This document shows positions 4,637 through 35,238 of a DNA stretch of 64,000 nucleotides, one piece after another. The stretch is from an uncultured delta proteobacterium. GTDB taxonomy: Bacteria; Myxococcota; Myxococcia; Myxococcales; Myxococcaceae. How positions within the stretch are numbered: position 1 is the first letter of the stretch; every line of letters begins with the position of its first letter. The notes beneath the pieces were generated by a model. The model was not told the DNA's origin and made no database searches. It was given only the letters and a program-made list of their open reading frames with translations. The stretch is taken from contig CAVSWU010000003.1 in NCBI GenBank assembly GCA_963731795.1, positions 1,222,216-1,286,215 of the forward strand, read 5' to 3'. The position numbers and the translations under genes were made by a program.

Positions 4637-4688
4637 GGCCTCCCGAGAGCCGCCTCACGCGGCACACCGAGCTGACAGTCCCAAGCAC

Positions 4689-14307: not shown

Positions 14308-15630
14308 TCAGAGGAGGTTGGCCGCGAGCTCGGCCAGGGCGCTGCGCTCGCCCTTGGCCATGGTGATGTGGCCCGCGATCTTCTCGTTCTTGAAGCGGTT
14401 GACCACGTGCACGAGGCCGTTGTTGGTCGCGTCCACGTAGGGGTTGTCGATCTGGAAGGGATCGCCGGTGAGGACGATCTTCGTGTTGTCCCCCACGCGG
14501 GTGATGATGGTCTTCACCTCGTGGGGCGTGAGGTTCTGCGCCTCGTCCACGATGATGAACTGGTTGGGGATGCTGCGGCCGCGGATGTAGGTCAGCGGCT
14601 CGATCTCGATCAGCCCCAGGTCGACCAGCTCGTGGTAGCCGCGGCCCGCCTTCTTGTCGGCGCGGCTGAGGTTCATCAGGAACTCCACGTTGTCGAAGAT
14701 GGGCTGCATCCAGGGGTTGAGCTTCTCCTCCACGCTGCCCGGCAGGTAGCCGATGTCGCGGCCGAGCGGGAAGATGGGCCGGCTCACCAGGAGCTTCTGG
14801 TACAGGCTCTCCTCCGTCATCTTCTGGAGCCCCGCGGCGATGGCCAGCAGCGTCTTGCCCGTGCCCGCCTTGCCCACGATGGTGACCAGCTTGATGTCGT
14901 CGTTGAGCAGCAGGTCCAGCGCGAAGGTCTGCTCCATGTTGCGCGGCCGCACGCCCCAGATGCCCTCCTTGATCGTCCGCAGCAGGGGGACGATCCGGCC
15001 CTTGGCGGCGTTGTAGCGCCCCATGGCCGTGTGGCGAGGGGTTGGTCTCGTCCTTGAGCAGCACGCACTGGTTGGGGAAGAGCTTGTCCGGCTCGGGCAG
15101 CTCCACCTCCACGCCGGGCTTGTACATCTGGTCCACCGACTCGCGCGGGACGAGCAGCTCGGTGAAGCCGGTGTACAGCTCGGTGATCTCGACGCGCTCG
15201 GTGTCGTAGTCCTCGGCGATGAGGCCCAGCGCGTCCGCGCGGATGCGCAGGTTGGTGTCCTTGGTGATGAAGACGGCCTCGGTGTCCGGCTCCTTCTTCA
15301 TCAGATCGATGGCCACCCGCGAGGATGCGGTTGTCCATCAGGTTGCCGTCCGCCAGCGGCGGGGGCAGCTCGTGCTCGGCGAAGCGCCACCCGGAGGAAG
15401 CCGCCGTGTGGCAGGGGGACGCCCTCCCGGAGCGAGCCCTCGGCGCGGAACGAGTCCAGGTAGCGGGCGACCAGGCGTGCGTTGCGGCCCAGCTCGGAGA
15501 GATCCCGCTTGAACTGGTCGATCTCCTCGATCACGTAGATCGGGATGATGACGTTGTTGTCCTTGAAGCCGTAGATGCTGCGCGGATCGTGGAGGAGGAC
15601 GTTGGTGTCGAGGATGAAGTTCTTCGGCAT
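14308..15630 (-). CDS. PhoH-like ATPase with N-terminal PIN domain (YlaK-like); two frameshifts (~15040 and ~15330)
   Basis: PIN N-terminus (ILDTNVLLHDP, 15630 frame). The middle part (NRILA|VAIDLMKKE...LFPNQCVLLKDE) is in a second frame. The PhoH core (GKAGTGKT...VDEAQN) is back in the first frame. The second junction (~15040) was traced to an indel in a short GG/CC run; the first (~15330) was not traced. Confidence 0.7.
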
Positions 15631-15933
15631 CGTGGTGGTTGCGACCTCGAAGAGGGGTGCGACCGCGTGGACGCTGCTGGGATGGAGGACCTGCCAGGAG
15701 CGAATATAGACACCCCCCTGCGGGGAAACAGCCGCTTTGCTACCGGGCTACACCTCTTGCGAGGCGCAAGCCCCTACCCGCCCGGTTGCGGAACCCAGCC
15801 CCGATGGTTCCAAACGCCTCTGGGGCCGAGGGTGTCCACTGGTAAACCGCTGATCGGCGGGCTCAAGTCCCTGCCTCCCTCAGGGGTAGGCGCCCATGGC
15901 TGCCGGGGATCGCCAGGCCGCTCGCCTCCCGGC

Positions 15934-16875
15934 TCAGGCTGGCGCCAGCGGATCATAGGAGAGCACCTCCGCCACGGGATCGGGCGGCGAACCGGGGGGC
16001 ATGCGCTCCCACGGAAAACGGTCCTGGAGCGCCTCGAAGTCGAGCGTGAGCGGAACCTGGGAGTGCTCCTTCGCCGCGCTGCGCCACGCCTTGTCCTCGA
16101 AGTGGCGCTCGAAGCGCCGCGTGAAGGACGCGAGCATGGGAGAGGGAGCGAAGCGCACCGGATCGCCACCGGGGCCGCGAACGCACTCCAGCTCCACGGC
16201 CCAGGACAGCAGCCACCGAGGCCACTGCCGCCCTGCCCTCCGCAGAGCCGCGAAGCGCCCCTGGGCGGCGCCGTCCACGAAGTGGAAGTGGCGGGTGTAG
16301 ACCCACGCGGCGGCGAAGGTGGAGGGGACGAGCGCCATGCCCTCGGCGCCCACGCGGCGGGCCATGAGCAGCATCCATTCGAGGAACTCGGCCGAGAGCG
16401 CCAGCCCCGGGTGGAGCTGGCCGGGCATCGGCGGGCGGTTCCAGTCAAAGGAGCGGCCTGGGTGCTGGAGGACGAGCGAGTCGATGAAGAGCAGCGGGAC
16501 CGCCTCCAGCGGAGGAGGCATCCCCACCTCGGCGCCCGCCGTCTTGCGCAGGGCGATGTCCCCCACCGGCGCGTGATAGCGCTGGCTCCAGAGGATGATG
16601 CGGGGCCGGAACGCGTCCTCGAAGCTCAGACGGACCTCGAGCGGCCCCACTCCCCGCTCCTGCAGGCGCCGGATCAGCCCGTACTCGCGCAGGACGTTCT
16701 CCAGCCCCTGGCGGCTGTAGATGCCGAAGGCGAGCGCCTCGCGTCCCCGCCGTGACTCCAGCCCCAGGTCCTCGAGGCTCAGCGCCTCATCCTGTTCGGC
16801 CGCGGACAGCTCCGCCGTGCTCAGGCGCTGGTAGATGCGACGGAAGCGCGAGGCAGGCTGCTGCGTCCGTGCCAC
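15934..16875 (-). CDS. conserved hypothetical protein
   Basis: 313-aa ORF with a GC-rich codon pattern consistent with coding. No motif I can name. Confidence 0.45.
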   Translation of the reverse strand: MARTQQPASRFRRIYQRLSTAELSAAEQDEALSLEDLGLESRRGREALAFGIYSRQGLENVLREYGLIRRLQERGVGPLEVRLSFEDAFRPRIILWSQRYHAPVGDIALRKTAGAEVGMPPPLEAVPLLFIDSLVLQHPGRSFDWNRPPMPGQLHPGLALSAEFLEWMLLMARRVGAEGMALVPSTFAAAWVYTRHFHFVDGAAQGRFAALRRAGRQWPRWLLSWAVELECVRGPGGDPVRFAPSPMLASFTRRFERHFEDKAWRSAAKEHSQVPLTLDFEALQDRFPWERMPPGSPPDPVAEVLSYDPLAPA

Positions 16876-17604: not shown

Positions 17605-17677
<73 letters not shown>

Positions 17678-17682
17678 TAGCC

Positions 17683-17755
17683 GTCCCCGTCGTCTAGAGG
17701 CCCAGGACGCTGGCCTTTCAAGCCGGTAACACGGGTTCGAATCCCGTCGGGGACA
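17683..17755 (+). tRNA. tRNA-Glu (anticodon TTC); its 3' 42 bp is the attachment site of the downstream island
   Basis: Acceptor GTCCCCG/CGGGGAC, anticodon loop CTTTCAA, T-arm ACGGGTTCGAATCCCGT. Confidence 0.85.
17714..17755 (+). repeat. attL: 42-bp direct repeat (3' end of tRNA-Glu)
   Basis: CCTTTCAAGCCGGTAACACGGGTTCGAATCCCGTCGGGGACA, identical to 35168-35209. Confidence 0.85.
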
Positions 17756-18079
17756 TAGAAGTTCTCAGGAGTTTCGAGAACTTAGGTGCGCACAGCCGTG
17801 CAGAGATGTGCGGCTGTGCGCACCGCGACGGCGCCAAGTTGGCGCCAAAAACCGGCGCTCTCTCCTCCCCCGTTACCGCGCGCCCCACCGCACGCTGCGG
17901 CCACACCCGACGCTTCGTAGATGGTTCCCAGCGCGCCGGTCAGCGCTCCGCAACAGGGCCCTCACCCATCCATATGCTCGTGAGTAGCCCAGGCTTAGAC
18001 CCGGCAGTGTCAGGCCAGAGGTATGCTTGGACCCTCAAATCGCCGAATAGGCGAGCATGGGCCTGGAGGGGCTTGCACT

Positions 18080-19363
18080 ATGGGCTTTCGCTTTAGCCGC
18101 AGGGTGAAACTGCTCCCCGGCATCCGCGTCAACATGGGGCTGCGAGGAGCATCCCTCAGCGTGGGAGGCCGCGGAGCAACCCTCAACCTTTCAAAACGCG
18201 GTGTACGTACGACCCTTGGAGTCCCCGGAACAGGGCTGTCGTGGACCAGCAGTTCCGCAAGCCGCAGTCACCAAACGCCTGCAGTTAGATCCGGAACGGC
18301 CAGGAGCACAGCGGCTGCGGAGCGGGCCCTTCGAGAGGCGGAGGCGCGAGCCTCCGTCGAAGCGGCAGAGTCGGAACGCGAGGCGCAAGTCAACGCATGG
18401 CGAGCCATGCCCGTCGTTCCTCCGGAGGCGGGCTACCTGCGCGCTACCCATGCAGAGCCATGGCCGCACGCTACTCCGACACGACCCGAGGAGGCACCTG
18501 CCCGTGCGGCCTTTCAAGTCGAATGCGAGCAGCGTGCGAAAATAAAGGAGACGGTATCCGTCCCGCGAGTCGTGATAGGGGTCCTGGCGCTTGCCGGCTC
18601 GCTCTCGCTCGGCATCAGCATGGGAAGTCTTTGCACAGGCATTACAGGATTCGTCATCGCGCTCGCGCTCCTAGTGCCTGAACTCAGCAAACTAGGCCGC
18701 CGACGTCCCTTGGCACAGACGTACTTCACCCAAGAGTGGCCCTTGCACTGGATGGAACTCCAGGCCAACTGGGCTGCATACGAGGCATGGCCCGAGCAAG
18801 AACGGGAGCGGGCGGCATTCGCCGCCAGACTGCTCCAAGGCGACCTCGCTGCCTTGACTGAGTCGCTGGAAGACTCCCTCGCCGACCTCGACTTCCCATT
18901 CGAGGCGTCATGCAGAATTGCGGTTCCCGAGCCACACGAAACCTTCGTGCTGCTCGACCTGCCTGAAATCGAGGACGCCATTTCGGAGGAGAAACTGCGC
19001 GCCCTGAAGTCGGGCGAGGTGAAGGAAGTACGCCGCACGCAAAAGGAGCGCCAAGCGGAGTACGCACGTCTAGCGACAGGCTTGGCGTTGTGGGTGGCAC
19101 GAACTGCCTTCGCTGCAGGGCCAACCCTCCAGCGCGTGCACGTAGCTGCCTATACGCAGCGTCGACGCACAGGTACGGGGGAACTCGTCGATGACTACGT
19201 GTATGAGGCGTGTTTTGAACGCGAGGTAGCCTCGCAATGGCGTCCGGACGAAGTTGACCCGATCGAGGTACTGCGCAGCGTGCCCAGCAGGATCGATCTA
19301 CGTGCAGATGGTCAGCTCAAAGCCATCCGAGCGCCAGAATGGGAGCACGTCGCGAGCGCGTAA
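18080..19363 (+). CDS. DUF4236 domain-containing membrane protein
   Basis: N-terminal MGFRFSRRVKLLPGIRVNMGLRGASLSVGGRGATLNLSKRG...LGVPGTGLSW matches DUF4236, followed by a hydrophobic segment. The ORF track starts at 18023. Confidence 0.55.
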   Translation: MGFRFSRRVKLLPGIRVNMGLRGASLSVGGRGATLNLSKRGVRTTLGVPGTGLSWTSSSASRSHQTPAVRSGTARSTAAAERALREAEARASVEAAESEREAQVNAWRAMPVVPPEAGYLRATHAEPWPHATPTRPEEAPARAAFQVECEQRAKIKETVSVPRVVIGVLALAGSLSLGISMGSLCTGITGFVIALALLVPELSKLGRRRPLAQTYFTQEWPLHWMELQANWAAYEAWPEQERERAAFAARLLQGDLAALTESLEDSLADLDFPFEASCRIAVPEPHETFVLLDLPEIEDAISEEKLRALKSGEVKEVRRTQKERQAEYARLATGLALWVARTAFAAGPTLQRVHVAAYTQRRRTGTGELVDDYVYEACFEREVASQWRPDEVDPIEVLRSVPSRIDLRADGQLKAIRAPEWEHVASA

Positions 19364-19450
19364 GACCGGCAGTCGGCTCGGCCTTGAACGCGCCGCCTCA
19401 CTTGTGCCCAATGGAGCGCGCCAGGACAGGGGCCCAGCAACCCCTGCCCT

Positions 19451-19966
19451 TCACTGCCCCGGGAGAAGAAAGGCGGCCAGGCGCACCAGTGCCTTGATCC
19501 TCGGACTGTCGAGGCGAGCGAGGAGGCGCAGCAGGCGCCGTTTCTCGGGCGTGTCGTTCAGGCCGGGCGGCACCGTGCCTGCCCCGGATGCCTCCTGCCA
19601 CGGAGCCACCGGAGAGAACCCCATCAGCTCATGGGGCCCGGATCCGAGAATCAGGCATAGGCGCAGCAGCGTGGAAACGCTCGGGAGCGCTCCCCCCCGC
19701 TCCATGCGCCCGTACACCTCGACGACGCTGCCGATACCTTCGGCAACTTCTGCCTGAGTCATGCCCGCGCGCTGGCGTGCCTGTTTCAACGCCGCTCCAA
19801 GGGTGGCCGGTAGCCTGTTCTGTCGGATCTCGACGTGCCGGGGCAGAGACGACCGCTTGCGGCGCGTCGTGGAGGGCCTGGAGCGTCCAGCGGCGGGAGT
19901 GTTCGCGGGGGTCTTCTCCATGTGGAACCTGCGGCTTTGCCCTGTCGGACGAGTTGAGGCCCCCAA
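19451..19966 (-). CDS. XRE-family helix-turn-helix transcriptional regulator
   Basis: LKQARQRAGMTQAEVAEGIGSVVEVYGRMERGGALPSVSTLLRLCLILG is a canonical HTH_XRE. The start may be the internal ATG at 19921. Confidence 0.6.
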   Translation of the reverse strand: MGASTRPTGQSRRFHMEKTPANTPAAGRSRPSTTRRKRSSLPRHVEIRQNRLPATLGAALKQARQRAGMTQAEVAEGIGSVVEVYGRMERGGALPSVSTLLRLCLILGSGPHELMGFSPVAPWQEASGAGTVPPGLNDTPEKRRLLRLLARLDSPRIKALVRLAAFLLPGQ

Positions 19967-20004
19967 GGGAGCCGGCGGCAGACGGTCACGGTCAGAGAGG
20001 GGGG

Positions 20005-21243
20005 CTAGTCGGTCCCGCCCGGCTCGGTGATGATGTCCTCTTCCGGCAGCATGGCAGGGGGCAACCCCTCCTCGTTGGTCGGCCCGAGAACGCGCCGACT
20101 CATGCTGGCCCCTGCCAGCGCGCTAAAGACCTCCTCGATCGCCTCCGCAGCTCCGTAGGGGGCGCCCAGCGAGGCGAGGCCCTCCCGTAGATCCGCCTCC
20201 AGGGCAGCCGCGGACGGATAGCGATCCTCCGGCTTCCGTTGGAGCAACTTGCGGATGATTGAGCGGAGCGGATGCGCGAGAGGTTCGGTGATCTCGTCCA
20301 CGTCGCGCGGGGTGAACGTGGCCGCCCGCAGGATGCAGTCGTCCGCGTGATCCGGTAGGTCCGCCTCCATGGCCGTGATGGCGGCGTCTAGAACCTTCCC
20401 CTTGACCTTCTCCGTTAGCGCCTCCTCCAAGTCGTCGGGCCGCACGTCGTCCATGCTGTAGAGGTGGTGCCACGTGGCCATTTCCAGCAGCACCAGCCCC
20501 AGCGAGAACAGATCCGAGCGCGGATCCGTCTCCTCGCCTAGCAGCGCTTCGGGCGAGCAATAGAACAAGTCCCCCTGAGGGCGCGGGAGCGTCGTTGCCA
20601 CCCGGCCCGGGAGCAGGGAGCGTGCGCGAGCAAAGTCCGTTAGGATGACCTCGCCCTCTGGCCTCAGGTAGATGCGGGCGGGGTTCACGTCCCGGTGAAC
20701 GATGCCCAGCGGGGCGCCGCTGTCGTCCTTGCAGGTGTGCGCGTAGTGCAGGGCACTGGCAACCTCTGCGCCTACGTACAGGCAGAGCGCGGGGGACATG
20801 GACGCTTGGCGCATGAGCGAGTAGCTGATCAGAGTATTGATCGACGTGCCCTCCACATTCTCGGACACGACATACAGAACGCCCTGGACCTCACAGCGCC
20901 CGATGATCCGGGCGATCCTCGGGTGTTGCAGGTAGGTGGCCAAGCGCGCCTCTTCACTGAGCCGCGCGCGCATCCTGACGAGTGCTTCCGGGTCGTTCGA
21001 CGTAGGCGGCAAGCTGCGGACGATGACTTGCCGCAGGCGCTTCTCTTTCGTGCGCTCCCAGGCAAGGACAGCCCTCTCCCCTACCCTCGATTCCGGCAAC
21101 TCCTCGACCATCCGATGCGACAGATCCACCTCATACGAGAGATCACCGAGAGAGAAGAGAATTACCCCCGGGACGTTGAAGGGTTGCCGAGACGTAGCCA
21201 TGTCGGATCGACTCCTCGCAGCGCGCACAGGGGCGCCGCGCAA
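20005..21243 (-). CDS. protein kinase-like protein with canonical C-lobe but unrecognisable N-lobe motifs
   Basis: HRDVNPARIYL, DFA, SPE and DLFSLG motifs are present. No Gly-rich loop or VAIK lysine could be found. Confidence 0.6.
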   Translation of the reverse strand: MRGAPVRAARSRSDMATSRQPFNVPGVILFSLGDLSYEVDLSHRMVEELPESRVGERAVLAWERTKEKRLRQVIVRSLPPTSNDPEALVRMRARLSEEARLATYLQHPRIARIIGRCEVQGVLYVVSENVEGTSINTLISYSLMRQASMSPALCLYVGAEVASALHYAHTCKDDSGAPLGIVHRDVNPARIYLRPEGEVILTDFARARSLLPGRVATTLPRPQGDLFYCSPEALLGEETDPRSDLFSLGLVLLEMATWHHLYSMDDVRPDDLEEALTEKVKGKVLDAAITAMEADLPDHADDCILRAATFTPRDVDEITEPLAHPLRSIIRKLLQRKPEDRYPSAAALEADLREGLASLGAPYGAAEAIEEVFSALAGASMSRRVLGPTNEEGLPPAMLPEEDIITEPGGTD

Positions 21244-21468
21244 TGGAGCGAAACACTACCCGGCATGTGCTAGCGGGATGAACGACGCCGGGGGTTGGGA
21301 GCGGCGCGACACTGCACTACAGCGTCAGCGGAACGCCCTAGCGGGCCAGCATGAGCGCAGCACGCCACACCGGCAGCAGCGCGGGATCCTCCGGGGGCTC
21401 CAGACTGATCGGGATCTTGATCATCTGAGGCACTCTTCACGTTTTCGGGAGTCTGCCTGAGAGAAGCC

Positions 21469-21903
21469 TTACCCGGCTAGGTTGCCCTCTATTAACTTCT
21501 TGAACTCATCAAACCCTATCGCTTTGCAGCTGACAGCGTATGCTTTCATCCTCTTGCCGCACCTTGTGTCTTCGGTCACCAGATAGTCTGCGGCGGCTTG
21601 AGCAGCGTCGGCGATAAGAGCGTCATTGAACTGCTTTGAGTTGCCACGATGAGCGACGTAGAGGCGCCCGGAACCAACCCGGTCTCCTACGCGACCGCCA
21701 GCCAACGCAACGCTCTCTCCAATGTGAGTCACTGGCAGCGACTTGGCCAAGTCTTCGTGCGGCGATTTCACGATCTCCGACCAAAGGGTCCGGGTGACGA
21801 GCACTGAGAGTGATGAGCGTGCGACGAGTTGACGGATGCGAACCGTAAGCGCTACGTCCGCCGCCAGTCTGTCGTAGATGTTACAGTCGAAGATGACTTT
21901 CAT
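21469..21903 (-). CDS. PIN-like domain protein (low-GC, probably horizontally acquired)
   Basis: MKVIFDCNIY N-terminus, E43, and a C-terminal LVTEDT pattern follow the PIN acidic-residue layout. This ~435-bp stretch is visibly lower in GC (~52%) than its neighbours. Confidence 0.45.
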   Translation of the reverse strand: MKVIFDCNIYDRLAADVALTVRIRQLVARSSLSVLVTRTLWSEIVKSPHEDLAKSLPVTHIGESVALAGGRVGDRVGSGRLYVAHRGNSKQFNDALIADAAQAAADYLVTEDTRCGKRMKAYAVSCKAIGFDEFKKLIEGNLAG

Positions 21904-22067
21904 CGTGCGAGTTACTCGAAAGGTACGAAGGGCTCAGAGCATGGGCAAAATTGAGAACTCATTGGAAGCAGCGGGATGGAACAAACCGGCCCCATACCGG
22001 TAGCCCCAGGGCTGGGCATCGCTGCGGATATCCAGCGGACGCGCTCCACGGGCACAGCAGGCCCGGC

Positions 22068-23963
22068 TCACCTCCACCGCTCCACCGCAACACCGGAGGC
22101 CACCTTCTTCCCCACAGCATGGCCGGGCTGGGAGCCCTCTTGCTTATCCATTCCCAGGACGCCCCCGCTCTTGAGCTCAACGCAGATCGGCACGGTGCGC
22201 CCGCCCGGAAGGTGAGCACGGAGATAGCGGCCATAGATGCGATCTCCCGTCGTCCACAGGTGCCCATCCAGCCGCGTCCCCGCTGGGGCCTTTCCTTCTG
22301 CCTCGATCAGCGCACCCGTGACAGGTCCATCCTTCCATACGGTCAACGGATCCTCGCGCGCCTCCTCTCGGGTTCCTTTGGTTACGTCAACGAGGATGAA
22401 GGGCTGTGACCCATGCCCAGGATAGGTGGACCACCCTAGCTCTTTCATCGCCCTAACGGCTTCCTCGGGGCAATCCTCGGGATCCGGGCGCGTCTGCACG
22501 CCGGGGCAGCCCGCTTGAAACCATGCGACGGAGGCCACGAGGAGCGCGCACCTCTCGGCTTTGGAGAGCACGCGCCGGGGACTGGCCTTCGGCGGGTTGG
22601 GTAGGCCGCTGGTGAGCGTTGGGGAGTTGTCGGGTTGTTTCACGGAAGGGCTCGCCTCCTCTTGGGTAGGGAGGGGTGAGGCTAACTGAGCGGGGCGGCT
22701 TGTCGGCTTTTCGGCCAGGGGGGTCGCGGGTCGGGGTTGATCCGCTGGGGCGCCTATGGCCACGGGGGGCGGCCCCGGGTGAGCTGGCCTGTACAGCACG
22801 AAGGCGGCGACGGCTGCCGCGAGCACTACCAGCGCCAGCGGCGCGGCCAGGGGCATACGGAGCCGCGCCGCTCGTGGACTGTGCACCGCTTCCCCCGGAG
22901 CTGCCAGCGGGGGCGGTGCCTCCGAGGGTATGGGCGGCATCTGTACGGCGGACGGGTGGACGGGGATCGGCACCTGCGGCGCCTCAACTGGCACGGGCAC
23001 CACTGCGGCGGGCTCTGGCGGGAGCTGCGCGGCGACCGGGTGAACGCGGGTGTTGCGCCACTCGGTGCCCTCGAGCTGCGCGAACTCATCCAGCGGGCCC
23101 CGTGCATCCCTCGCGGTCGCGTACCGGTCCTCGGGTTTGGGGCTGATCAGCTTCATCGCGTAGGCGCTCAACTCCTGCGGAACGCGTCCCTTGGTTGCAC
23201 TGAAGGGGGAAGGCGGCGCCATGACTTCGCTACCGAGCGGGGGCCTCTTCTGTCCTCGCGTCGGCATGGGGTCCGTCAACACGTCGTAGAGGTCCGCCCC
23301 GAGTGCGAAAATATCGTCCGTCGCTCGGAACGTGTAACGGGCCTCGGGGTTGAGCCGGTTCTCGTTCCAGAAGTGCACCGCCTCCGGGCTGCGGTTGCGC
23401 GGCGTGCCTGGGGGGAGCGGCCCATCCGTCAATTCCTCGGCTGAAGCGAAATCCGCCGCTCCAAAGTCGATGATCACCGGCTCGCCGCCCTTGGTGACCA
23501 TGATGTTCCGTAGGCTCAAGTCCCGATGGAACACGTCCCGCCCGTGCATGTGCTCCAGGGCATCAAAGAGCTTGAGGAACAGGACGACAACTTGATGCGG
23601 GGTCGGGTGGGTCTGCTCCACCCACCGCGCGAGCGTGTAGCCGTCCACGAAGTCTAGAACGATGTAGAGGAAGCCTGAGCGCGGATCCGGCCAACGGCCA
23701 TGCGCGAACATCCGGACAATGTGGGAGTGGTTGAGTTGCTGGAGGCAGGCCACCTCGCGCCGCGCGCGTGCGTCAACCTGCTTCGGGTCGTTGCTGCGCT
23801 CCGTCTGACAGGCCACCTTGAGCGCGAAGCGCTGGCCGTCCTTCTCCACCTCGTAAACGACGGCATACCCGCCGCTCCCGATGCGTCGGACGATGCGCCA
23901 GCCGTCCACCATCTGGCCGGGCGTGAGGTTCAACGGATCCACGTGAGCCAGCATGCCGCGCAC
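22068..23963 (-). CDS. eukaryotic-like Ser/Thr protein kinase with TM segment and C-terminal extracytoplasmic domain
   Basis: IGSGGYAVVY, ALKV, HRDLSLRNIMV, DFG. The linker is Pro-rich and a TM helix is PLALVVLAAAVAAFVL. Confidence 0.85.
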   Translation of the reverse strand: MRGMLAHVDPLNLTPGQMVDGWRIVRRIGSGGYAVVYEVEKDGQRFALKVACQTERSNDPKQVDARARREVACLQQLNHSHIVRMFAHGRWPDPRSGFLYIVLDFVDGYTLARWVEQTHPTPHQVVVLFLKLFDALEHMHGRDVFHRDLSLRNIMVTKGGEPVIIDFGAADFASAEELTDGPLPPGTPRNRSPEAVHFWNENRLNPEARYTFRATDDIFALGADLYDVLTDPMPTRGQKRPPLGSEVMAPPSPFSATKGRVPQELSAYAMKLISPKPEDRYATARDARGPLDEFAQLEGTEWRNTRVHPVAAQLPPEPAAVVPVPVEAPQVPIPVHPSAVQMPPIPSEAPPPLAAPGEAVHSPRAARLRMPLAAPLALVVLAAAVAAFVLYRPAHPGPPPVAIGAPADQPRPATPLAEKPTSRPAQLASPLPTQEEASPSVKQPDNSPTLTSGLPNPPKASPRRVLSKAERCALLVASVAWFQAGCPGVQTRPDPEDCPEEAVRAMKELGWSTYPGHGSQPFILVDVTKGTREEAREDPLTVWKDGPVTGALIEAEGKAPAGTRLDGHLWTTGDRIYGRYLRAHLPGGRTVPICVELKSGGVLGMDKQEGSQPGHAVGKKVASGVAVERWR

Positions 23964-23976
23964 CTCTCGCCTGTTA

Positions 23977-24891
23977 CTACAGCCGAACCTCGGGAACGGA
24001 CAGACAGCGGCTCCCGTCTGCGTTGCACACCCGTAGCGCGTGCAGCGCGCTCAACCATTCTCCCGGCTCCCTCGCGGGCATCTCCACCTCCACGGCCACG
24101 CTCACCGCGCCCCCTGGGGGGATGGTTGCTTGCCCAGAGAGCACCGCGCGAGCGCGGCGCGGCTCCCCTCCCGCTGCGGGTGTCACCTCGGCCCACGCGG
24201 GCGCCCATGGTTCCGCTCCGGTGTTGCTCACTTCGAGCACCACCACGCTCCACGTTGACGCCCCGAGTCCTCTGCACTCTACGGGGCGAAGTTCGCCGCG
24301 CACGGCCTCGCACGCCTCCCGGAAATCCTGAGCCGTCATCCCCTTGTCGTCCACCAGCCCCGCGAGCGCTACCGCTGCCGGGCTCACCGCTGGAGGCCGT
24401 GCCTTCAATTCCTCCAGTTCCTTGGCTTGTGCCTCGCACCGCTCGCGCGTGGCGGCCAGTTCCACGCGGCACGCCTCCACCGTCTGCGGCGGGCGGCTCA
24501 CGTTGACCACGGTATCCGCCTTGCCCGGCTCCCCTGTGAGCAGGAACACAACGCTAGAGGGGAACCCCTCGCGGTAGGAGAACCGGAGCGCCAGCCGTTC
24601 GCCGGGCCCGAGCGCCACGGACGGCGCGAGCGTGACGCCTGCATCACCCACCTCGAACACAGGGAAGCGGGCGCGGCCCTCCACCTGGACAGACTCCCGC
24701 AGGATCGGAGCGCCCAGCAGGATCACCGTAACGGTGCCAAGTGCCACGTAGATCACCGGAGACTCGCCAGCCTTCCCTGTGAGCACAACGGAGCGCCCAG
24801 CAGGCGCGGCCTGTGCCGTAGCGGCAAGGCCCACCAGCAGGGAGGCGAGCGCGAAAGGCGGGACGAAGGGTCGGAGCTGAATGGAGGGACC
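23977..24891 (-). CDS. secreted hypothetical protein, kinase-associated (TIGR02268-like Myxococcus paralogous family?)
   Basis: Signal-peptide-like LASLLVGLAATAQA begins the convincing part. It lies immediately upstream of the kinase on the same strand. No ATG/GTG start was found near the GGAGGT RBS. Confidence 0.4.
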   Translation of the reverse strand, partial: GPSIQLRPFVPPFALASLLVGLAATAQAAPAGRSVVLTGKAGESPVIYVALGTVTVILLGAPILRESVQVEGRARFPVFEVGDAGVTLAPSVALGPGERLALRFSYREGFPSSVVFLLTGEPGKADTVVNVSRPPQTVEACRVELAATRERCEAQAKELEELKARPPAVSPAAVALAGLVDDKGMTAQDFREACEAVRGELRPVECRGLGASTWSVVVLEVSNTGAEPWAPAWAEVTPAAGGEPRRARAVLSGQATIPPGGAVSVAVEVEMPAREPGEWLSALHALRVCNADGSRCLSVPEVRL

Positions 24892-25261
24892 TCCCAGGTA
24901 GGCCCACAGCCTAGCAGGTGATCGAGGGCGCCCGCGTCGAAGTGTGCCCCTGCCGGTTCTCGCAGCCGTTCCAGTGGGCGCCGCCCTGCCTCGACGCGGG
25001 AGCGCCCTACGGGCCGGGGCTCCCCCCGTCCGACACGCGAGCGCTCCACGGGCCCAGCGGGGGCGAGCCCCGCCGCGCGAGCGCTCCACCGGGCCGAGCT
25101 GGACGCGGCGACGATGGCCGCCGTCCTGGCGCGCGCCACTGGCCAGCGCTGGCGCTGTCGGACGCGCGCTCCTCCATCGGCTCTCGCTGTTGGGGCGTGC
25201 TGATATGCTCCAGCGGAGAACCGGAGCCTTGACCCGCAGCACCTCGCTTGATTGAAAGGAC

Positions 25262-26185
25262 GTGGCCATGCGTGCGCGAACTTGCAGCGCCCCCCTGATC
25301 CTGTTCCTGCTCTCAGCCTGCGCCACGATGGATCCGAGCCCGGGAGCGCTGGAGGACCCGAGTCCCCCGAGTCCGAGATTCGCCAACCTCCAGCGGGCGG
25401 CGCTGTACCCCTGGACGGATGATGGGCAGTGCGTCGTGCGAGAAGCATCCAACGAATGGCCTATCCTTGCGGAGCGGTGCTTTCACGCGCTCGATCGCGA
25501 CAGGGTTAGATTTCAGGATGTCACCAAACGATGCGCCGTTGCCTACGCGGATGCCGCCGCTCCCGCAGTCGTGGCCCTCTGTGTCTTTGCGGCACCCGAG
25601 ATCGTCGTCGGTGCAGTGATTGTTGTTGGCGCGGTGGTGGTTGCAGCCGCCATCCAAGAGGGGATTGATGCTTACCAACGGAACGCATCCCGCGAGCGTG
25701 CGAAGCCCAAGACTCAAACGCAACCGGCTAAGGAACCGTTAGCGAACCGAGCGCCTAAGCCAAAGGGGTCGAGCACCGGAGACATCTTCCCACCACCGCC
25801 AGAAACCAAGCCGCGCAGTCCGTCGTGCGAGCCCATCCCGGTACGACACGCGGGCGAAGATGTCCCGCATAATGAGTGCGCCGATAAGTTTCCGCCCAAC
25901 CGTTATCCCGGCATGGACGTATTCGTGGGCGGTGAGCGCTTCGATGCGCTGCAAGTCGGCGTGCGTGTGCTGTGGGAAATCAAGACCCATCAATTCGACA
26001 CGTACAATGACTTTATCCAAGACCGCGAGATTGAGAAAGAAATCGAGCAGTTGGATAAAGAACGAAGAGCTGCGGTGGCGTGCGGATATGATTTTGTCAT
26101 TGGGGTGAGCACCCAAGCGCACAAAGCCGCGCTGCTGCGACGGGATCAGACCCTCCATATCGTCGTCACGGGGTGCAAGCGATGA
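25262..26185 (+). CDS. lipoprotein, putative polymorphic toxin with C-terminal PD-(D/E)xK-like nuclease motif (copy 1)
   Basis: Lipobox LLSAC, an internal hydrophobic segment and an Ala/Pro/Lys linker. The C-terminal PGMDVFVGG...LWEIKTH resembles PD...ExK. It is a paralog of 39642-40544. Confidence 0.55.
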   Translation: MAMRARTCSAPLILFLLSACATMDPSPGALEDPSPPSPRFANLQRAALYPWTDDGQCVVREASNEWPILAERCFHALDRDRVRFQDVTKRCAVAYADAAAPAVVALCVFAAPEIVVGAVIVVGAVVVAAAIQEGIDAYQRNASRERAKPKTQTQPAKEPLANRAPKPKGSSTGDIFPPPPETKPRSPSCEPIPVRHAGEDVPHNECADKFPPNRYPGMDVFVGGERFDALQVGVRVLWEIKTHQFDTYNDFIQDREIEKEIEQLDKERRAAVACGYDFVIGVSTQAHKAALLRRDQTLHIVVTGCKR

Positions 26186-26940
26186 CTAAGCGAAAAAGAC
26201 TCGGCATCATCGTCTACGCGCCTGCGCTCGTGGGCAACGAACGCCGCGTGCTCGATAGCGTCCATGGAATGGAAAAGGCGCTCCCCGGCCTGCGCCTGGA
26301 GTGGCGTCTCTCCAAAGGCGGGCGCCCCATCGCATTGCCGCAGCGCGACGCGTGGCTCGTAGAAAAGATTGAGGACGGGGGCTTCCCTCTTGTGTGCAAC
26401 GGGGACGCGAGTTACGCCGTGACGGTCTGGGGAAGGGAAAGATCAGGACTCTTCAGCTCTGGCGGTCAAGCCCAGTTTGAGGTGCATGCAAGACTGCCTC
26501 TGGACGAGCCCGTGATCGCGTCAGCGGCAGCTGTGCTTGAGGGCGTGGCGGAGGGGGCGGGTGCGCTGTGGGGGCGTGCGACGCCAGAGGACGCTGAGCT
26601 GGACATCGCGTATCAGACAGCGCCCACGCAGGAAGGGCCGCCGTCCCCACGCCGGGGGCTGCCCGCCCTGAAGCTCTTCGAGCACATCCGCTCGCCCGAG
26701 ATTCCCTATTACCTCGGATGGCTGAACTACTGGTCTGCCGCTGCCGCGAAAGAGATCGGGTTCCCGGACCCGGCCCGCGACACCGAGCTGCTCACTCGGG
26801 CGCGGCGCACTCCGTCGGGCGGGTGGGTCGTGCAGCTCACCGATGCGCCGCTCGATCTCGACAACCCCGCCCACCTGGACGCACTCAAGCGGACCTACGA
26901 GCGCTTCCCGGAGATTGGCGGGCGCGACTCTCCACGCTGA
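26182..26940 (+). CDS. putative cognate immunity protein (copy 1)
   Basis: ATGA start/stop overlap with the upstream toxin-like gene. About 85% aa identical to 38890-39645, which follows the second toxin copy. Confidence 0.5.
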   Translation: MTKRKRLGIIVYAPALVGNERRVLDSVHGMEKALPGLRLEWRLSKGGRPIALPQRDAWLVEKIEDGGFPLVCNGDASYAVTVWGRERSGLFSSGGQAQFEVHARLPLDEPVIASAAAVLEGVAEGAGALWGRATPEDAELDIAYQTAPTQEGPPSPRRGLPALKLFEHIRSPEIPYYLGWLNYWSAAAAKEIGFPDPARDTELLTRARRTPSGGWVVQLTDAPLDLDNPAHLDALKRTYERFPEIGGRDSPR

Positions 26941-27135
26941 AGGAGGCTGCTGCGCGTCTCCTAGCACACTCCACCGGGGCCGAGCTGGCGCTATCTGACG
27001 CGCGCGAGCGCTCCACGGGGCCAGCAGGCACGCATCGACGCGCGAGCTCTGCCATATGCGCCCCAGATCCGCCAGGAACCACGCGGGCGCCGGGGCTGAT
27101 TCGCGGGGGGCAGAACACGCCAAAATCACCCCGGT

Positions 27136-27699
27136 TCAAACCTGACCGGCGGCCAGGTCCTCGAGCGACTCGCGGATCAGGTCCTCGAACTTCGCGATCT
27201 GCGCCGTCGTCAGCTCTGGCATCGCCTGCTTGGCTCGCGACGGGACACCCAAGAGCTTCGTCCGGCACTTCCTGAAGACGTCTTCCAGCTCAGCGCGGAC
27301 GCCGGCCGCCGGCACGACTTCGCCGGCCGCCTTCAGATATTCCAGCTTCGCCGTCTTCGCCTGCCAGACCGCTTTGATCGCGTTGGCCTCCGACAAGGAC
27401 ATCCCCTCATACGGCTCGGGAACCTCGCCAGAGAGGGAGGGCGCGGCGCCTGACGACGCCCGTTGTCGGTTGTCGGGGGGCGTGTCACCTACTGAGCCAG
27501 CCGCGACCACGGACGCGGGCGCCTTGCTCAAGTCCGTGTTGGCCACCCATTCGCGGTCAGCCCGGTCAGGGTCGATCATGCCGTTCGGCTCCAGGTGAAT
27601 ACGGCCCTTCGCCAGTGCGCGCTGCACGGCCTGAAGGGAGCCCCCGGGGAGGCCCCTGTCCTTCCGATGCTCAGCGTATTTGCGCCGCGACAGCCCCAT
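27136..27699 (-). CDS. phage-type DNA-binding protein (terminase small subunit-like N-terminus)
   Basis: N-terminal MGLSRRKYAEHRKDRGLPGGSLQAVQRALAKGRI resembles the HTH of phage terminase small subunits; the C-terminus is helical. Confidence 0.4.
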   Translation of the reverse strand: MGLSRRKYAEHRKDRGLPGGSLQAVQRALAKGRIHLEPNGMIDPDRADREWVANTDLSKAPASVVAAGSVGDTPPDNRQRASSGAAPSLSGEVPEPYEGMSLSEANAIKAVWQAKTAKLEYLKAAGEVVPAAGVRAELEDVFRKCRTKLLGVPSRAKQAMPELTTAQIAKFEDLIRESLEDLAAGQV

Positions 27700-27941: not shown

Positions 27942-29144
27942 TTAGGGTGTGGGAAGCGCGGAAGGGGTGCTTCCGGCGCTTCCCGGGAAGCGTGGGAAGG
28001 GATGTGCCACCGTTGCCCGATCTTCATGATCATCCCCTCCAGTCTCCAGCTCCTTGCACGCTTGCAGCACGGCTTGAGTCCGGCGACTCAGACGGAGAGC
28101 TAACCCCGAGCCGCTGTCCGGTTTCTCCGCGAGCGCAGCCTGGATGTCCGCGCCGAGTTCCTCGGCTGCGGGCGCGGCCTTGGCCCTGACCTCGCGGCTG
28201 TACGTCCAGAGCGCCCACGTGGCCTCGCCGTTAGCGTCGTCCCTGATGTTCAAGGTGAGCTCGAACAGTCCCGCCGCACGCCCTGTCTTGGTCTCCACGA
28301 GCACAGAATCGGTCAAGGTGCTCTCCGTATGGGCCTTGAGCGCCATGTAGAAACCGCCGTCCACCGCGCCGTGGATGGCGGAGCTTCCGCGCATCATCTG
28401 GCCCGCGCGCCGTGAGGACTTGTCGGGGCTGCTCTTCGCGCTGTGGTGGACGAACAGCACAGTGCAATCCAAGAGGTCGCGGATCGCACGAAGCTGGGCC
28501 ATCACGTGCGCCATGGCGCCGCTGTCGTTCTCCTCGGCGCCGTGGATATCGCGCAGCGGGTCCAGCGCAACCAGCTTGGGCGCGCGCGGGAGCATCCGCA
28601 CAGCGGCGATGACGGCACACACGTCTGCGTCGTCCTGCAGGTCGATGTGCCCCCGGCACTGGATGTGGATGCGCCCTGTGGCCTTCTGAGGATCGAGCCC
28701 CTTGCCCACCGCGAGCGCCGCAAGCCGCGTGCGCATGGACTGTTCGCTGTCCTCGGCCATGAATAGGGCCACCTCTCCGGCCTCGCTCACCTGGAACTCG
28801 CCGAACGCCGGGACCGCATTTGCAACCGCCAGCGCTATCTCGATCTCCGCCCAAGTCTTGGCGGCCTTGGGTTCGGCTGAGATGGAGAAGACGCTCTTTT
28901 CCGGGATGATCCCGCTGATGGTCCACTGCATCGGTTTCGCAGGGCGCGAGAGGATGTCAGCGGCGCACTCGAACAGGACCTTGCGCTGGCCGCCAACGCT
29001 CCGGCCACGGTGCTGATCAAGCTCCAACCAAGCCCGGTGGAGCTGCCATTCGTAGGTCCCCGGCGCGGCGTCGGGGTCCGTGACGAAGTTGCTGCGGGCC
29101 TCTTTCACGGCGATGAGTTCCGCAACGCCCTCCGGCAGGCTCAA
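27942..29144 (-). CDS. RecA-like / AAA_25 family ATPase (RepA/primase-associated helicase-like)
   Basis: Walker A-like GIIPEKSVFSISAEPKAAKT and a Walker B-like acidic patch. TTG start. A TGA at 29211-29213 closes the upstream prim-pol frame, and no ATG/GTG lies between that stop and the ATPase's TTG start. Confidence 0.6.
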   Translation of the reverse strand: MSLPEGVAELIAVKEARSNFVTDPDAAPGTYEWQLHRAWLELDQHRGRSVGGQRKVLFECAADILSRPAKPMQWTISGIIPEKSVFSISAEPKAAKTWAEIEIALAVANAVPAFGEFQVSEAGEVALFMAEDSEQSMRTRLAALAVGKGLDPQKATGRIHIQCRGHIDLQDDADVCAVIAAVRMLPRAPKLVALDPLRDIHGAEENDSGAMAHVMAQLRAIRDLLDCTVLFVHHSAKSSPDKSSRRAGQMMRGSSAIHGAVDGGFYMALKAHTESTLTDSVLVETKTGRAAGLFELTLNIRDDANGEATWALWTYSREVRAKAAPAAEELGADIQAALAEKPDSGSGLALRLSRRTQAVLQACKELETGGDDHEDRATVAHPFPRFPGSAGSTPSALPTP

Positions 29145-29340: not shown

Positions 29341-29760
29341 ATGGAGAAGGAGTTGGAGCAGTTCCGGCAGGAGGTAGAGCGACTGAGGGCCGGGCGGCAG
29401 AAAGGCTCGTTGCCCTACCCGGAGACGCTGAGAGCGTTTGCGGTGCGCTACGTGGAGCATGCCCTGGAGGCGGGCGGGACGTTTGAGGCAGCAGCGACGG
29501 CGCTGGGGGTGTCGAAGCCGACGCTGCAAGCGTGGAGGAAGGGCAAGCCTGCGGCGCATCGTCGAGCCAAGGCGGGAGCAGAGGGGCGTGGGCTGGTGCC
29601 GGTGGTGGTGTCCGAGCCAAGGAAGCCGGGACGGCCGGCGATGGCGCAACCAGCCGTGGGGCAGGCAGGGCCCTTGACGGTGGTGGCCCCCGGGGGCTTT
29701 CGGGTGGAGGGGTTGAGCCTGGAGGGCGCAGCGCAGTTGCTGCGGAAACTGGGATGCTGA
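29341..29760 (+). CDS. tnpA: IS66 TnpA (orf1)
   Basis: 139 aa, first ORF of the IS66 unit with a helix-turn-helix region. Confidence 0.7.
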   Translation: MEKELEQFRQEVERLRAGRQKGSLPYPETLRAFAVRYVEHALEAGGTFEAAATALGVSKPTLQAWRKGKPAAHRRAKAGAEGRGLVPVVVSEPRKPGRPAMAQPAVGQAGPLTVVAPGGFRVEGLSLEGAAQLLRKLGC

Positions 29761-30134
29761 CGCTCACCCGAGCGGTGCGAGTGTTTGCCTATGCGGCGGC
29801 AGTGGACATGCGCAAGGGGTTCGATGGGCTGGGGGCCCTGGTGGAGCAGCAGCTGGGCGGGCAGTTGCTCAAGGGGGATGTGTTCCTGTTTGTGGGCCGA
29901 AGCCGCCGCCGCGCCAAGGTGCTGTACTTCGATGGGACGGGGCTGGTGTTGTTGACCAAGCGCTTGTTCCAAGGACGCTTCGCGCGGCCCTGGCCCGAGA
30001 AGGGCGCTGCCTCGGTGGAGTTGACGGTGGCCGAGCTGTCGCTGTTCCTGGAGGGCTGCGAGCTGGCGGGCCGCTGGAGGCTGTCGCCGCCTGCCTTCGA
30101 GGAAAAAACCCTTGCGGTAGGCTCTGCGTCCTAG
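29754..30134 (+). CDS. tnpB: IS66 TnpB (Orf2)
   Basis: VDMRKGFDGLGALV...GDVFLFVGRSRRRAKVLYFDGTGLVLLTKRL is the IS66 Orf2 signature. The ATG overlaps the tnpA stop. Confidence 0.8.
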   Translation: MLTLTRAVRVFAYAAAVDMRKGFDGLGALVEQQLGGQLLKGDVFLFVGRSRRRAKVLYFDGTGLVLLTKRLFQGRFARPWPEKGAASVELTVAELSLFLEGCELAGRWRLSPPAFEEKTLAVGSAS

Positions 30135-30149
30135 CACCTCTCAGGTAGG

Positions 30150-32498: not shown

Positions 32499-32849
32499 TC
32501 ACGCTGGCTCCGTGCTCTGGACTCGGGAATTGGAGCGGGCGGGCGGACGGGGCCGCCGCTTCTTCCACTCCGAGCGTTGCCGTTCGGCCAGCTCGGCCAG
32601 CTCCGCTTTGAACGACTTGGGCGCGCGGCGCTTCGCCGTGGGCCGCTGCTCGGGCTGCCGCGTGTGGCACTCCGCCGCGAGCGCGGCAGCGACGGACTCT
32701 GCGGTGATCACGGTCTTTCGGCCGTACTTCGGCCCCCGGACAAGCGTGTTGTCGGCGAGCAGTTCGAACACCCGGCGCCGCTTGCAATGGAGCTCGGCGG
32801 CTGCCTCATCGACGGTCAGCAGCGCGCTCACGGCTGCCCCCGGTCGCAC
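32499..32849 (-). CDS. excisionase/AlpA-like helix-turn-helix DNA-binding protein
   Basis: LLTVDEAAAELHCKRRRVFELLADNTLV is an HTH_17/Xis-like motif. Confidence 0.5.
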   Translation of the reverse strand: MRPGAAVSALLTVDEAAAELHCKRRRVFELLADNTLVRGPKYGRKTVITAESVAAALAAECHTRQPEQRPTAKRRAPKSFKAELAELAERQRSEWKKRRPRPPARSNSRVQSTEPA

Positions 32850-33093: not shown

Positions 33094-33825
33094 CTACTTG
33101 GGCTCGTTCGCAAGCCTCGTTCCACGCGAGGTGACAGCGTACCCTTTCTTCGGCCCGCCTGGACGGTGAACGAGGCCGGCCTCAGAGAGTTCAGCCAGCG
33201 CCTTGCCCACCGTGCCGCGTGAGAACCCGTCCGGGTTGTTCTCCTCGATATCTCTCTGGCCCTGCCGGGCTCCGCCTACGCACGTAGCAAGGTACTTCAG
33301 GATCTTGAATGCGTTCTTGCTCAACTGTGGAGCGCCCTCAACCTCGTCGGCCCTTTCGGGTGGTGGGACTTCCTTCACAAGCGCGAGGTCGCTCTCAGCT
33401 TCTGCAGCGAGTTGCTCAATGACCCGCCGTACTTCGACCACGTCCTGCGGAGGCGCCCACTCCCAGACCGCCGGCAGCCCTAGAACGTGGGACTCGCGCG
33501 CAAGGGGCAGGAAGTCGCGCAGCCATTGCCTGAAGTGAGGGAAGTCCTCGATGGATTCCTTTCCACTGCGGACGCGCTCCTCTATCGCGATGAGGCCGGG
33601 AAGTGAGCGCCTTGCGTTCTGCCGAAGGCAATAGAGGCGCTCTTGAAGCGACGTCCCGGTTGGCCTGCTCGCATAGAGCCACGGCACGTCCTTCGAAATA
33701 TACGAGCCGTCATCGAGGGAAGCCGCGCCTGCTTTGACTGCGGCGGCTAGCTTCTGCGCCAGTACCTCTCGGCGTTTGCCTTCGACCCATGCTTTATGCT
33801 CAGCCTTCTTGCGGTCGATGCTCAC
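33094..33825 (-). CDS. hypothetical protein with C-terminal winged-helix DNA-binding domain
   Basis: C-terminal FKILKYLATC...GTVGKALAELSEAGLVHRPGG is a wHTH. It lies between the integrase and the Xis genes. Confidence 0.4.
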   Translation of the reverse strand: MSIDRKKAEHKAWVEGKRREVLAQKLAAAVKAGAASLDDGSYISKDVPWLYASRPTGTSLQERLYCLRQNARRSLPGLIAIEERVRSGKESIEDFPHFRQWLRDFLPLARESHVLGLPAVWEWAPPQDVVEVRRVIEQLAAEAESDLALVKEVPPPERADEVEGAPQLSKNAFKILKYLATCVGGARQGQRDIEENNPDGFSRGTVGKALAELSEAGLVHRPGGPKKGYAVTSRGTRLANEPK

Positions 33826-35087: not shown

Positions 35088-35167
35088 GGGCGCCTCTCAA
35101 GAGGAACGGCGCCAAGTCGGCGCCAAGTGCCACCATACACCGCCCGTCTCCCTCTGGGAAACACTCC

Positions 35168-35209
35168 CCTTTCAAGCCGGTAACACGGGTTCGAATCCCG
35201 TCGGGGACA
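35168..35209 (+). repeat. attR: 42-bp direct repeat of tRNA-Glu 3' end
   Basis: Identical to 17714-17755. Confidence 0.85.
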
Positions 35210-35238
35210 CTGAATCGGGGCCGGAAGCTGCTGAACAC

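Follow-up and report, generated by a model that had tools for sequence, protein, structure and literature searches.

The stretch analyzed here, called the window below, is 64,000 nt of contig CAVSWU010000003.1 (assembly GCA_963731795.1) from an uncultured delta proteobacterium of the Myxococcaceae. Toward the left end of an island integrated in this DNA lies a gene cassette, encoded on the minus strand between 24900 and 19451, that is specific to myxobacteria and carried on mobile elements. It consists of a DUF2381 gene, a membrane serine/threonine kinase gene and a gene for a kinase-like protein that we predict to be a pseudokinase, followed in the window by a helix-turn-helix (HTH) regulator gene of the XRE family:

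23977-~24900, minus strand: DUF2381/TIGR02268 protein, first gene of the cassette (Pfam E 6e-47; TIGR02268 E 7e-36)
22068-23963, minus strand: single-pass membrane Ser/Thr kinase, 631 aa (Pkinase E 5e-30)
21202-21345, minus strand: conserved promoter-like leader of ~140 nt, directly 5′ of the pseudokinase ATG
20005-21201, minus strand: predicted pseudokinase, 398 aa, cytoplasmic (open reading frame 20005-21243; identical to database protein P0001)
19451-19921, minus strand: XRE-family HTH regulator, 156 aa (HTH_3 E 4e-11; open reading frame extends to a TTG at 19966)

A first-pass annotation had drawn the unit differently, treating a DUF4236 gene, the XRE gene, the kinase-like gene and a PIN-like gene between 18023 and 21903 as one module. 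That grouping does not hold, because the conserved partners of the kinase-like gene (22068-23963 and 23977-~24900) lie outside it and the PIN-like and DUF4236 genes are unrelated to the rest. The conserved unit was missed because two of its genes fall beyond the right boundary of that interval, which in fact holds three unrelated things: part of a conserved cassette, an insertion with the PIN-like gene, and a DUF4236 neighbor.

The order DUF2381, kinase, pseudokinase is found at all ten loci that have enough upstream flank (the window, L001, L002, L004, L007, L009, L010, L011, L016 and L018), and also in L019/L020. It is seen in Stigmatella aurantiaca (two copies), Corallococcus exercitus and Hyalangium versicolor (three copies), and further carriers are several metagenome contigs, a Hyalangium metagenome-assembled genome (MAG) and Stigmatella sp. 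ncwal1. Among named organisms, Hyalangium, Stigmatella and Corallococcus supply the closest homologues. Diverged copies number at least two on the contig of the window and at least three in the genome of Hyalangium versicolor, and the TIGR02268/DUF2381 family is annotated as 'Myxococcus xanthus paralogous family'.

The kinase-like protein belongs to the Hanks-type kinase superfamily by both its profile match and its predicted bilobal fold. The match to Pkinase (PF00069) is clear, with E 1.1e-24 and 87.7 bits against a cutoff of 31.7, and starts at profile position 43. The C-lobe had been described as textbook. The motifs that were quoted for it do exist (HRDVNPARI at aa 169-177, DFA at 189-191, SPE at 216-218 and DLFSLG at 230-235), but they deviate where catalysis is concerned: in the catalytic loop HRDVNPAR, Asn replaces Lys and Arg176 replaces the Mg-binding Asn, and DFG has become DFA (Ala191). 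The description of the N-lobe as lacking a Gly-rich loop and a VAIK lysine was accurate. Specifically, the loop reads L-P-E-S-R-V-G in place of GxGxxG, and the VAIK position reads VIVR, with Arg62 as the beta3 residue.

A search over 5.8 billion proteins returned 973 matches, of which more than 100 are full-length close homologues at 50-84% identity, and we counted motif states in a sample of 104 close homologues. The beta3 residue is Arg in 96 and Lys in 8, and the eight Lys-bearing proteins keep the DFG glycine too, though neither the Gly loop nor the Mg-binding Asn. Within the Gly loop only the final glycine is invariant, the position of the catalytic-loop Lys is Asn or Ser, the position of the Mg-binding Asn is Arg in 100 of the 104, and DFA is found in 95. 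Retained, on the other hand, are the alphaC Glu (102/104), HRD with Asp171 (104/104), the DFG Asp, Asp189 (102/104), and [S/A]PE (104/104). No Lys is invariant anywhere in the N-lobe across these homologues, as a WNK-style compensating lysine would be. The same substitutions, Arg62, Arg176 and Ala191, are fixed across genera; about 60 positions are invariant, including some in the non-catalytic C-terminal helices, and the family has several paralogues per genome.

Structure prediction, proposed earlier as a way of locating an ATP-binding lysine, gave a complete five-strand N-lobe without one. The AlphaFold2 (AF2) model, built from a 31-sequence alignment, has a mean local confidence (pLDDT) of 78.7 and a template modelling score (pTM) of 0.81, and includes the five-strand N-lobe, alphaC and a complete C-lobe; the only disordered part is the Gly-loop segment, with low pLDDT at residues 30-37. 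A Foldseek search with this model places CDK2, PknB and Stk1 on top with probability 1.0, and PknB is also the closest entry in a sequence search of the PDB. In the model, then, the N-lobe is present yet catalytically degenerate. A frameshift as the cause of the odd N-lobe was considered and rejected: the 398-aa frame is intact, identical to the database protein, and common to all homologues.

The wider family was sampled by a profile search of 1.84 billion cluster representatives, which gave about 35 full-length distant relatives of 360-430 aa. In these, the residue that is lost differs by lineage: HRD can read HRA, HRN, HRG or HRE, DFG can read GFG, NFG, HFD or KFV, and the beta3 residue can be R, Q, S, T, A or D. 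Because different lineages have lost different catalytic residues while the fold and the non-catalytic landmarks persist, the function of the family does not appear to need catalysis, and judged by these alignments the whole kinase-like clade looks non-catalytic. The protein in the window has lost the VAIK Lys within an intact conserved fold, which places it among pseudokinases by their sequence definition (loss of at least one of the VAIK Lys, the HRD Asp and the DFG Asp). That the kinase might be a pseudokinase scaffold had been mentioned as an alternative, and with catalytic residues missing, decay across the clade and a constant kinase partner it is now the best fit. We also note a large clade of stand-alone kinase-like proteins of 360-430 aa among proteins P0212-P0357, whose lineages differ in having lost the HRD Asp, the DFG Asp or the beta3 Lys, and which is possibly a sizeable, uncharacterised family of bacterial pseudokinases.

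The constant partner of the pseudokinase has the features of an active receptor-type kinase. Hydropathy gives a transmembrane segment at ~aa 370-393, followed by a linker that is Pro-rich and variable and by a conserved C-terminal domain that contains Cys and is predicted to be extracytoplasmic. All nine orthologues compared keep the Gly loop, Lys, alphaC Glu, DFG and SPE. Its catalytic loop reads HRDLSLRN in seven of the nine, with Ser for the usual Lys and Arg ahead of the Asn; this recalls the HRDLAARN of tyrosine kinases, and the kinase may have a specificity other than Ser/Thr.

The DUF2381 protein has an N-terminal signal-like segment by hydropathy and is predicted to be secreted. Its start codon is uncertain, and the open frame reaches 25452. 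No ATG, GTG or TTG occurs where the homologues begin (24830-24900, minus strand), and an ATT (24879) stands 7 nt past a strong GGGAGG ribosome-binding site, which suggests either a non-canonical start or an N-terminus unlike that of its relatives.

The leader in front of the pseudokinase gene was aligned for ten loci (the window, L001, L004, L006, L007, L009, L010, L011, L016 and L018), which represent several genera and have a mean identity of 80%. Two boxes in it are invariant, TTCCGCTGACGCTGTAG and GGGTAGTGTTTCGCTCC, and it has a ribosome-binding site, AGGAG. The leader matches no Rfam family and the RNAalifold covariation term is −0.03, so a signal at the DNA level, such as a promoter or operator, is likelier than a structured RNA. 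A scan of 19300-25600 for the sigma-70 consensus found zero sites, and by eye only we find a sigma-54-like GG-N10-GC spacing in GGGTAGTGTTTCGC, within box GGGTAGTGTTTCGCTCC. We also observe that the GCUCC of GGGTAGTGTTTCGCTCC could pair with the AGGAG ribosome-binding site.

The strong conservation of the region in front of the pseudokinase gene makes it probable that this gene is controlled apart from the kinase gene. A separate promoter would agree with transcriptomics of phase variation in M. xanthus, where kinase-like genes located 3′ of Ser/Thr kinase genes are down 35- to 46-fold in tan variants with the upstream kinase unchanged, and where other kinase/Xre clusters are up about 10- to 300-fold (PMC3986340). 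Insertions in MXAN_3182 and MXAN_4374, which belong to kinase/DUF2381 clusters, are over-represented in spores (bioRxiv 10.64898/2026.08.28.747804), and MXAN_3182 is an inner-membrane Ser/Thr kinase (PMC3222651).

The XRE regulator is an optional fourth gene of the cassette. Its likely start is M16, at 19921, which matches P0128, and the protein has a basic N-terminal tail, the HTH and a conserved C-terminal region, with 83 homologues. Among the 14 places where sequence downstream of the pseudokinase is available, the XRE gene follows it in seven (the window, L005, L006, L016, L018, L019/L020 and L021) and is absent from the other seven (L001, L002, L004, L007, L008, L009 and L011). As to the proposed search for a conserved HTH-kinase gene order, the two genes are adjacent in one half of the places and the HTH gene is missing from the other. 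Where present, the XRE gene always lies 3′ of the pseudokinase, after a gap of 83 nt in the window and ~200 nt in L005, L006, L016 and L018.

Between the kinase and the pseudokinase the window differs from its relatives, because a locus-specific insertion separates the two genes:

21346-22030, minus strand: locus-specific low-GC insertion of ~690 nt, delimited by alignment and GC profile, carrying the PIN-like gene
21469-21903, minus strand: PIN-like gene, 144 aa (predicted fold)
22036-22061, minus strand: repeated intergenic motif, also at 25036-25061 and 27003-27028 (repeat search and alignment)

The spacer is 867 nt long in the window versus 160-230 nt, without any gene, in six other loci, and the insertion is bounded by the repeated motif just past the kinase stop codon and by the conserved pseudokinase leader. 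The GC content of the PIN-like gene, given earlier as ~52% and far below background, is indeed well under the background of ~67%, but the value for the open reading frame is 56%; windows of 150 nt range over 49-61%, with minima of 49-53%.

The PIN fold with its conserved acidic residues is confirmed by the predicted fold only, the sequence matches being under the cutoffs (PIN 17.2 bits vs 23.6; PIN_3 17.1 vs 27; TIGR00305 13.5 vs 29.15). Only seven homologues, at 57-64% identity, were found in the whole protein collection; their sources are a prophage-like region of Corallococcus coralloides, a Nitrospirales MAG and metagenomes, and they have 46-51% GC whatever the host and share no common neighbor gene. 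The gene had been described as lacking an antitoxin partner, and this is borne out: no conserved antitoxin open reading frame was found in the 165 nt upstream or in the homologue loci L012-L015, where the gaps are 120-540 nt. Two 47-aa frames, at 21912-22055 and 21934-22077, were tried as antitoxin candidates and rejected, being Pro/Cys-rich, overlapping the repeated motif and having no counterpart in the four homologue loci. Compared with VapC/PIN toxins, the protein differs in falling under the Pfam and NCBIfam cutoffs, in carrying a family-specific invariant Gly-rich insert (GESVxxAGGxVGDRxGSG), in having no antitoxin gene, and in belonging to a very rare family (seven homologues) that always has low GC. 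The most fitting interpretation is a nuclease gene of the 'moron' type that stands alone, was acquired horizontally and is foreign to the cassette.

The same spacer holds other things elsewhere. In L021 it contains, at 1425-4733, a Type I methyltransferase gene (PADLOC E 7e-233) and a specificity subunit gene, and Tandem Repeats Finder (TRF) detects tandem arrays of 77 nt × 4.4 in L016 (5128-5468) and of 96 nt × 1.9 in L011 (7614-7821). Taken together, the PIN insert, the Type I genes and the tandem repeats imply that the spacer behaves as a variable insertion hot spot. The repeated motif at its edge in the window is GC-rich (…GCCTGCTGGGCCCGTGGAGC…CGCGTC…), lies between gene modules of the island, and is also the unit of the tandem arrays of L016 and L011. 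It may serve as a terminator or an operator, or as a site of recombination.

The remaining features of the island are as follows:

17683-17755, plus strand: tRNA-Glu(UUC), found by ARAGORN and Rfam; its 3′ part is attL
17707-17760 and 35161-35214: attL and attR, a direct repeat with 91% identity over 54 nt and a 42-nt exact core
18080-19363, plus strand: DUF4236 membrane protein (open reading frame opens at 18023, likely start 18080; Pfam E 6.6e-17)
26173-26940: DUF5953 gene, within the island
27136-27699: small-terminase-like (terS) gene (phrog_57 E 1.4e-21)
27942-29144: AAA_25 replication-type protein (E 2e-29)
29341-31667: IS66 element, an insertion interrupting the island
32499-32849: HTH_17 excisionase-like gene (E 9e-5, under the Pfam cutoff)
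33822-35214, minus strand: right end of the island, with the tyrosine integrase (33822-35087) and attR

A tRNA-Lys and a tRNA-Glu gene (17605-17755) lie to the left of the island, which is integrated in the latter and measures 17.5 kb between the att repeats, or ~15 kb without IS66. The att repeats place attL just left of the gene group, as expected from its earlier description as left-end cargo adjoining attL. The window has ~68% GC, and third-position GC in the island is below that of the flanks. The island also encodes a 243-aa winged-helix protein, and the integrase matches Phage_integrase with E 1e-4, under the Pfam cutoff. No virion genes were found on the island in Pfam and PHROG family searches.

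Judged by this gene set, the carrier resembles a phage satellite or a small integrative island. Like phage-inducible chromosomal islands (PICI) and other phage satellites, it has an integrase, an HTH_17 excisionase/AlpA-like gene, AAA_25 and a terS-like gene, lacks structural genes and has accessory genes at one end. Unlike them, it has no known helper phage, induction or packaging, and its integrase and HTH_17 matches fall under the Pfam cutoffs. The literature searched contained no description of phage satellites in myxobacteria.

The DUF4236 gene next to attL is convergent with the XRE gene and was correctly identified as encoding a membrane protein on the plus strand: the Pfam match agrees with two hydrophobic segments at ~aa 161-203 in the hydropathy profile. 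The protein matches phage PHROG families without assigned function (phrog_38135 at 4e-34), and the gene is absent from all 18 related loci checked. It is a gene for a phage-associated membrane protein, an unrelated neighbor outside the cassette.

Several further observations concern the island ends and their surroundings. A near-identical palindrome, ACGGCGCCAAGT(T/C)GGCGCCAA, occurs at 17828-17848 and at 35106-35126, ~70 nt inside attL and ~55 nt inside attR, and is a candidate arm site for the recombinase or an excisionase. Past attR lies the remnant of a second element (35239-40505), which holds a truncated integrase C-terminus (35239-35577), a second DUF5953 gene (38899-39648) that is 83% identical to the island copy and on the opposite strand, and, at 40110-40505, an inverted copy of 25313-25723; the remnant suggests tandem or successive integrations at tRNA-Glu. 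To the left of the island, a PIN-PhoH (PhoH2-like) gene at 14308-15630 (minus strand) appears split across three frames (15630-15301, 15316-~15030 and 15024-14308), which reflects either two frameshifts, making it a pseudogene, or sequence errors.

We lean toward reading the cassette as a transmembrane phospho-signalling module in which the pseudokinase is a non-catalytic partner. The DUF2381 protein together with the ectodomain of the kinase would perceive a cue from outside the cytoplasm, and the active kinase would pass the signal on via the pseudokinase, which might be its substrate, its scaffold or its allosteric regulator; the XRE protein, where present, would give a transcriptional output. 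The analysis establishes the gene content, synteny, motif states, two folds and insertion described above, whereas we infer who senses what and that the pseudokinase and the XRE protein act downstream of the kinase.

The closest known counterparts of such a module are gene clusters of M. xanthus (Dziewanowska et al. 2014, PMC3986340; for example MXAN_1233/1234, 3182/3183, 4371-4374 and 4479-4481), with which the cassette was compared through their published descriptions. Like the cassette, these clusters have an optional upstream paralogous gene, a membrane Ser/Thr kinase gene and, directly after it, a gene for a 'PKc-like' kinase-like protein, with Xre genes nearby; they occur as several paralogous copies per genome, some with DUF2381/TIGR02268 genes, and their kinase-like gene is regulated apart from the kinase. 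Unlike what we present here, the published evidence for them is transcriptomic and transposon-based, and no mechanism, pseudokinase status or mobile carriage is described there. Our scan of the genome collection gave eight loci, none of them from M. xanthus.

For the mechanism the nearest parallels are eukaryotic. LKB1-STRAD, HER2-HER3, the JH1-JH2 domains of JAK and the tandem kinase-pseudokinase resistance proteins of plants likewise join an active Hanks kinase to a fold-conserved partner without catalytic residues, and the same scaffold, allosteric or decoy role is proposed. Here, by contrast, each partner has a gene of its own, in a bacterial cassette that resembles an operon and also has DUF2381 and an optional XRE gene. 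The likeness is a mechanistic analogy, with no homology past the shared kinase superfamily.

A number of points weigh against a signalling module with a non-catalytic partner. What links kinase and pseudokinase here is gene order across loci. Asp171 of HRD and Asp189 of DFx are kept in the close subfamily, so residual or unusual catalysis is possible, and the beta3 Arg together with the Arg at the position of the Mg-binding Asn could allow nucleotides to be bound without metal. Since half of the loci have no XRE gene, its product cannot be the obligatory output. The kinase-like proteins of the M. xanthus clusters are 596-597 aa long, versus 398 aa here. Finally, carriage on integrase-borne islands with defence-type genes around fits immunity at least as well as host signalling.

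The last point leads to the possibility, which we regard as unlikely though it is the main rival, that the cassette is an anti-phage, superinfection-exclusion or kin-recognition immune system of the island, with the pseudokinase as decoy or sensor, the kinase as effector trigger and the PIN-like nuclease as extra defence cargo. The cassette is nearly always on mobile DNA, with an integrase and/or HTH_17 gene within ~7 kb in the window, L002, L004, L006, L011, L016, L018 and L019, and the gene set of the window's island (integrase, excisionase, AAA_25, terS) is satellite-like. Defence-type genes are found within or near the cassette: the Type I methyltransferase and specificity genes inside the L021 spacer, the PIN-like gene in the window, in L018 (7471-9915) a PADLOC candidate protein, PDC-S59 (E 7.5e-75), whose gene overlaps the stop codon of the HTH gene and has an HNH endonuclease gene behind it, and ThsB-TIR, Nmad2 and MazG_C genes near the L001 cassette (14584-16765). 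Ser/Thr kinases also belong to the known systems Stk2, PD-T4-6, Mad6 and PglW, and all of these models match the kinase domains here. However, the matches are generic to kinase domains (Mad6 83 and 122 bits against a cutoff of 460; PglW 12 and 64 against 990), PADLOC and NCBIfam give no other kind of match to known defence systems and no partner genes in the window, and DUF2381 has no PADLOC match. The presence of several diverged copies per genome also argues against immunity, and the only functional data, from M. xanthus, concern phase variation and sporulation, not phage. A role in defence rests on the neighborhood, a weak guide to function on a carrier that is mobile itself. The literature searched held nothing relevant on pseudokinases in anti-phage defence.

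A bolder version of the immune explanation, which we find rather improbable, would make the cassette a mobile immune or self/non-self module: the DUF2381-ectodomain pair would detect contact with phage or a foreign cell, the pseudokinase would arm the kinase as decoy or scaffold, as a counterpart of the plant tandem kinase-pseudokinase resistance proteins, and the spacer would serve as a landing pad for defence genes, of which the PIN-like nuclease gene in the window and the Type I restriction-modification genes of L021 would be examples.

It is still less probable that the cassette controls the island itself, the XRE protein being the repressor and the kinase-pseudokinase pair relaying a signal from the envelope or a helper phage to excision or replication of the element. 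About half of the compact element in L019/L020 is taken up by the cassette, the rest of that element having only small HTH genes, AAA_25, HTH_17 and an integrase; L004, L011 and L018 have an integrase gene 1-2 kb upstream of DUF2381; and the XRE protein matches PHROG families of phage repressors and CII-like proteins. But half of the loci do without the XRE gene, in the window that gene lies at the island end farthest from the integrase, L007 and L009 have no integrase within the available flank, and a second small HTH gene beside the replication genes of L019 is a better repressor candidate.

The first-pass annotation had seen in the kinase and HTH genes a possible toxin-antitoxin or abortive-infection pair, that is, a kinase-like toxin with an XRE antitoxin in a HipBA-like type II arrangement, and this we now hold to be very unlikely. 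The two genes are adjacent and on the same strand wherever the XRE gene is present, as HipBA also pairs a kinase-type protein with an XRE-family HTH protein, and the HTH has weak similarity to the HipB, Y4mF and MqsA antitoxin models, all far under the cutoffs. Against this, HipB precedes and overlaps hipA, whereas here the HTH gene trails after a gap of 83 to ~200 nt and is missing in 7/14 places. HipA is moreover a different kinase family, and no HipA domain was found among the Pfam or NCBIfam matches of the window proteins. Beta3 Lys, Gly loop and Mg-binding Asn are all missing from the kinase-like protein, the wider clade loses other catalytic residues, and the pseudokinase is invariably linked to the kinase and DUF2381 genes instead. 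That the kinase-like gene is a functionless, decaying duplicate of the neighboring kinase can be set aside almost entirely: several of its catalytic motifs are degenerate, but its frame is intact, more than 100 homologues share ~60 invariant positions, the three substitutions are fixed across genera, the upstream region is conserved and the fold is predicted with confidence.

Myxobacteria have the largest bacterial kinomes, and about a tenth of the M. xanthus kinases are listed as pseudokinases; to our knowledge, almost none of these has a known partner or role. The kind of locus described here was already visible in annotation, as TIGR02268, and in M. xanthus transcriptomics, but is not known to have been dissected. 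What the present analysis adds is the three-gene architecture, the pseudokinase diagnosis, the carriage on an island, the conserved leader and the hot-spot spacer with its PIN insert, the spacer and the rare partnerless PIN family being of smaller interest, for the discovery of defence genes. Current understanding is not overturned, and the value lies in the correct delimitation of the unit and in a testable model: does the kinase phosphorylate or bind the pseudokinase? In the locus and its relatives, the gene for an active receptor-type kinase is consistently joined by those for a conserved pseudokinase and for a DUF2381 protein predicted to be secreted, and the lineage-specific loss of catalytic residues is a signature of a non-catalytic function. 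The spread of the cassette on integrase-borne islands links the kinase/Xre clusters of yellow-tan phase variation to mobile DNA.

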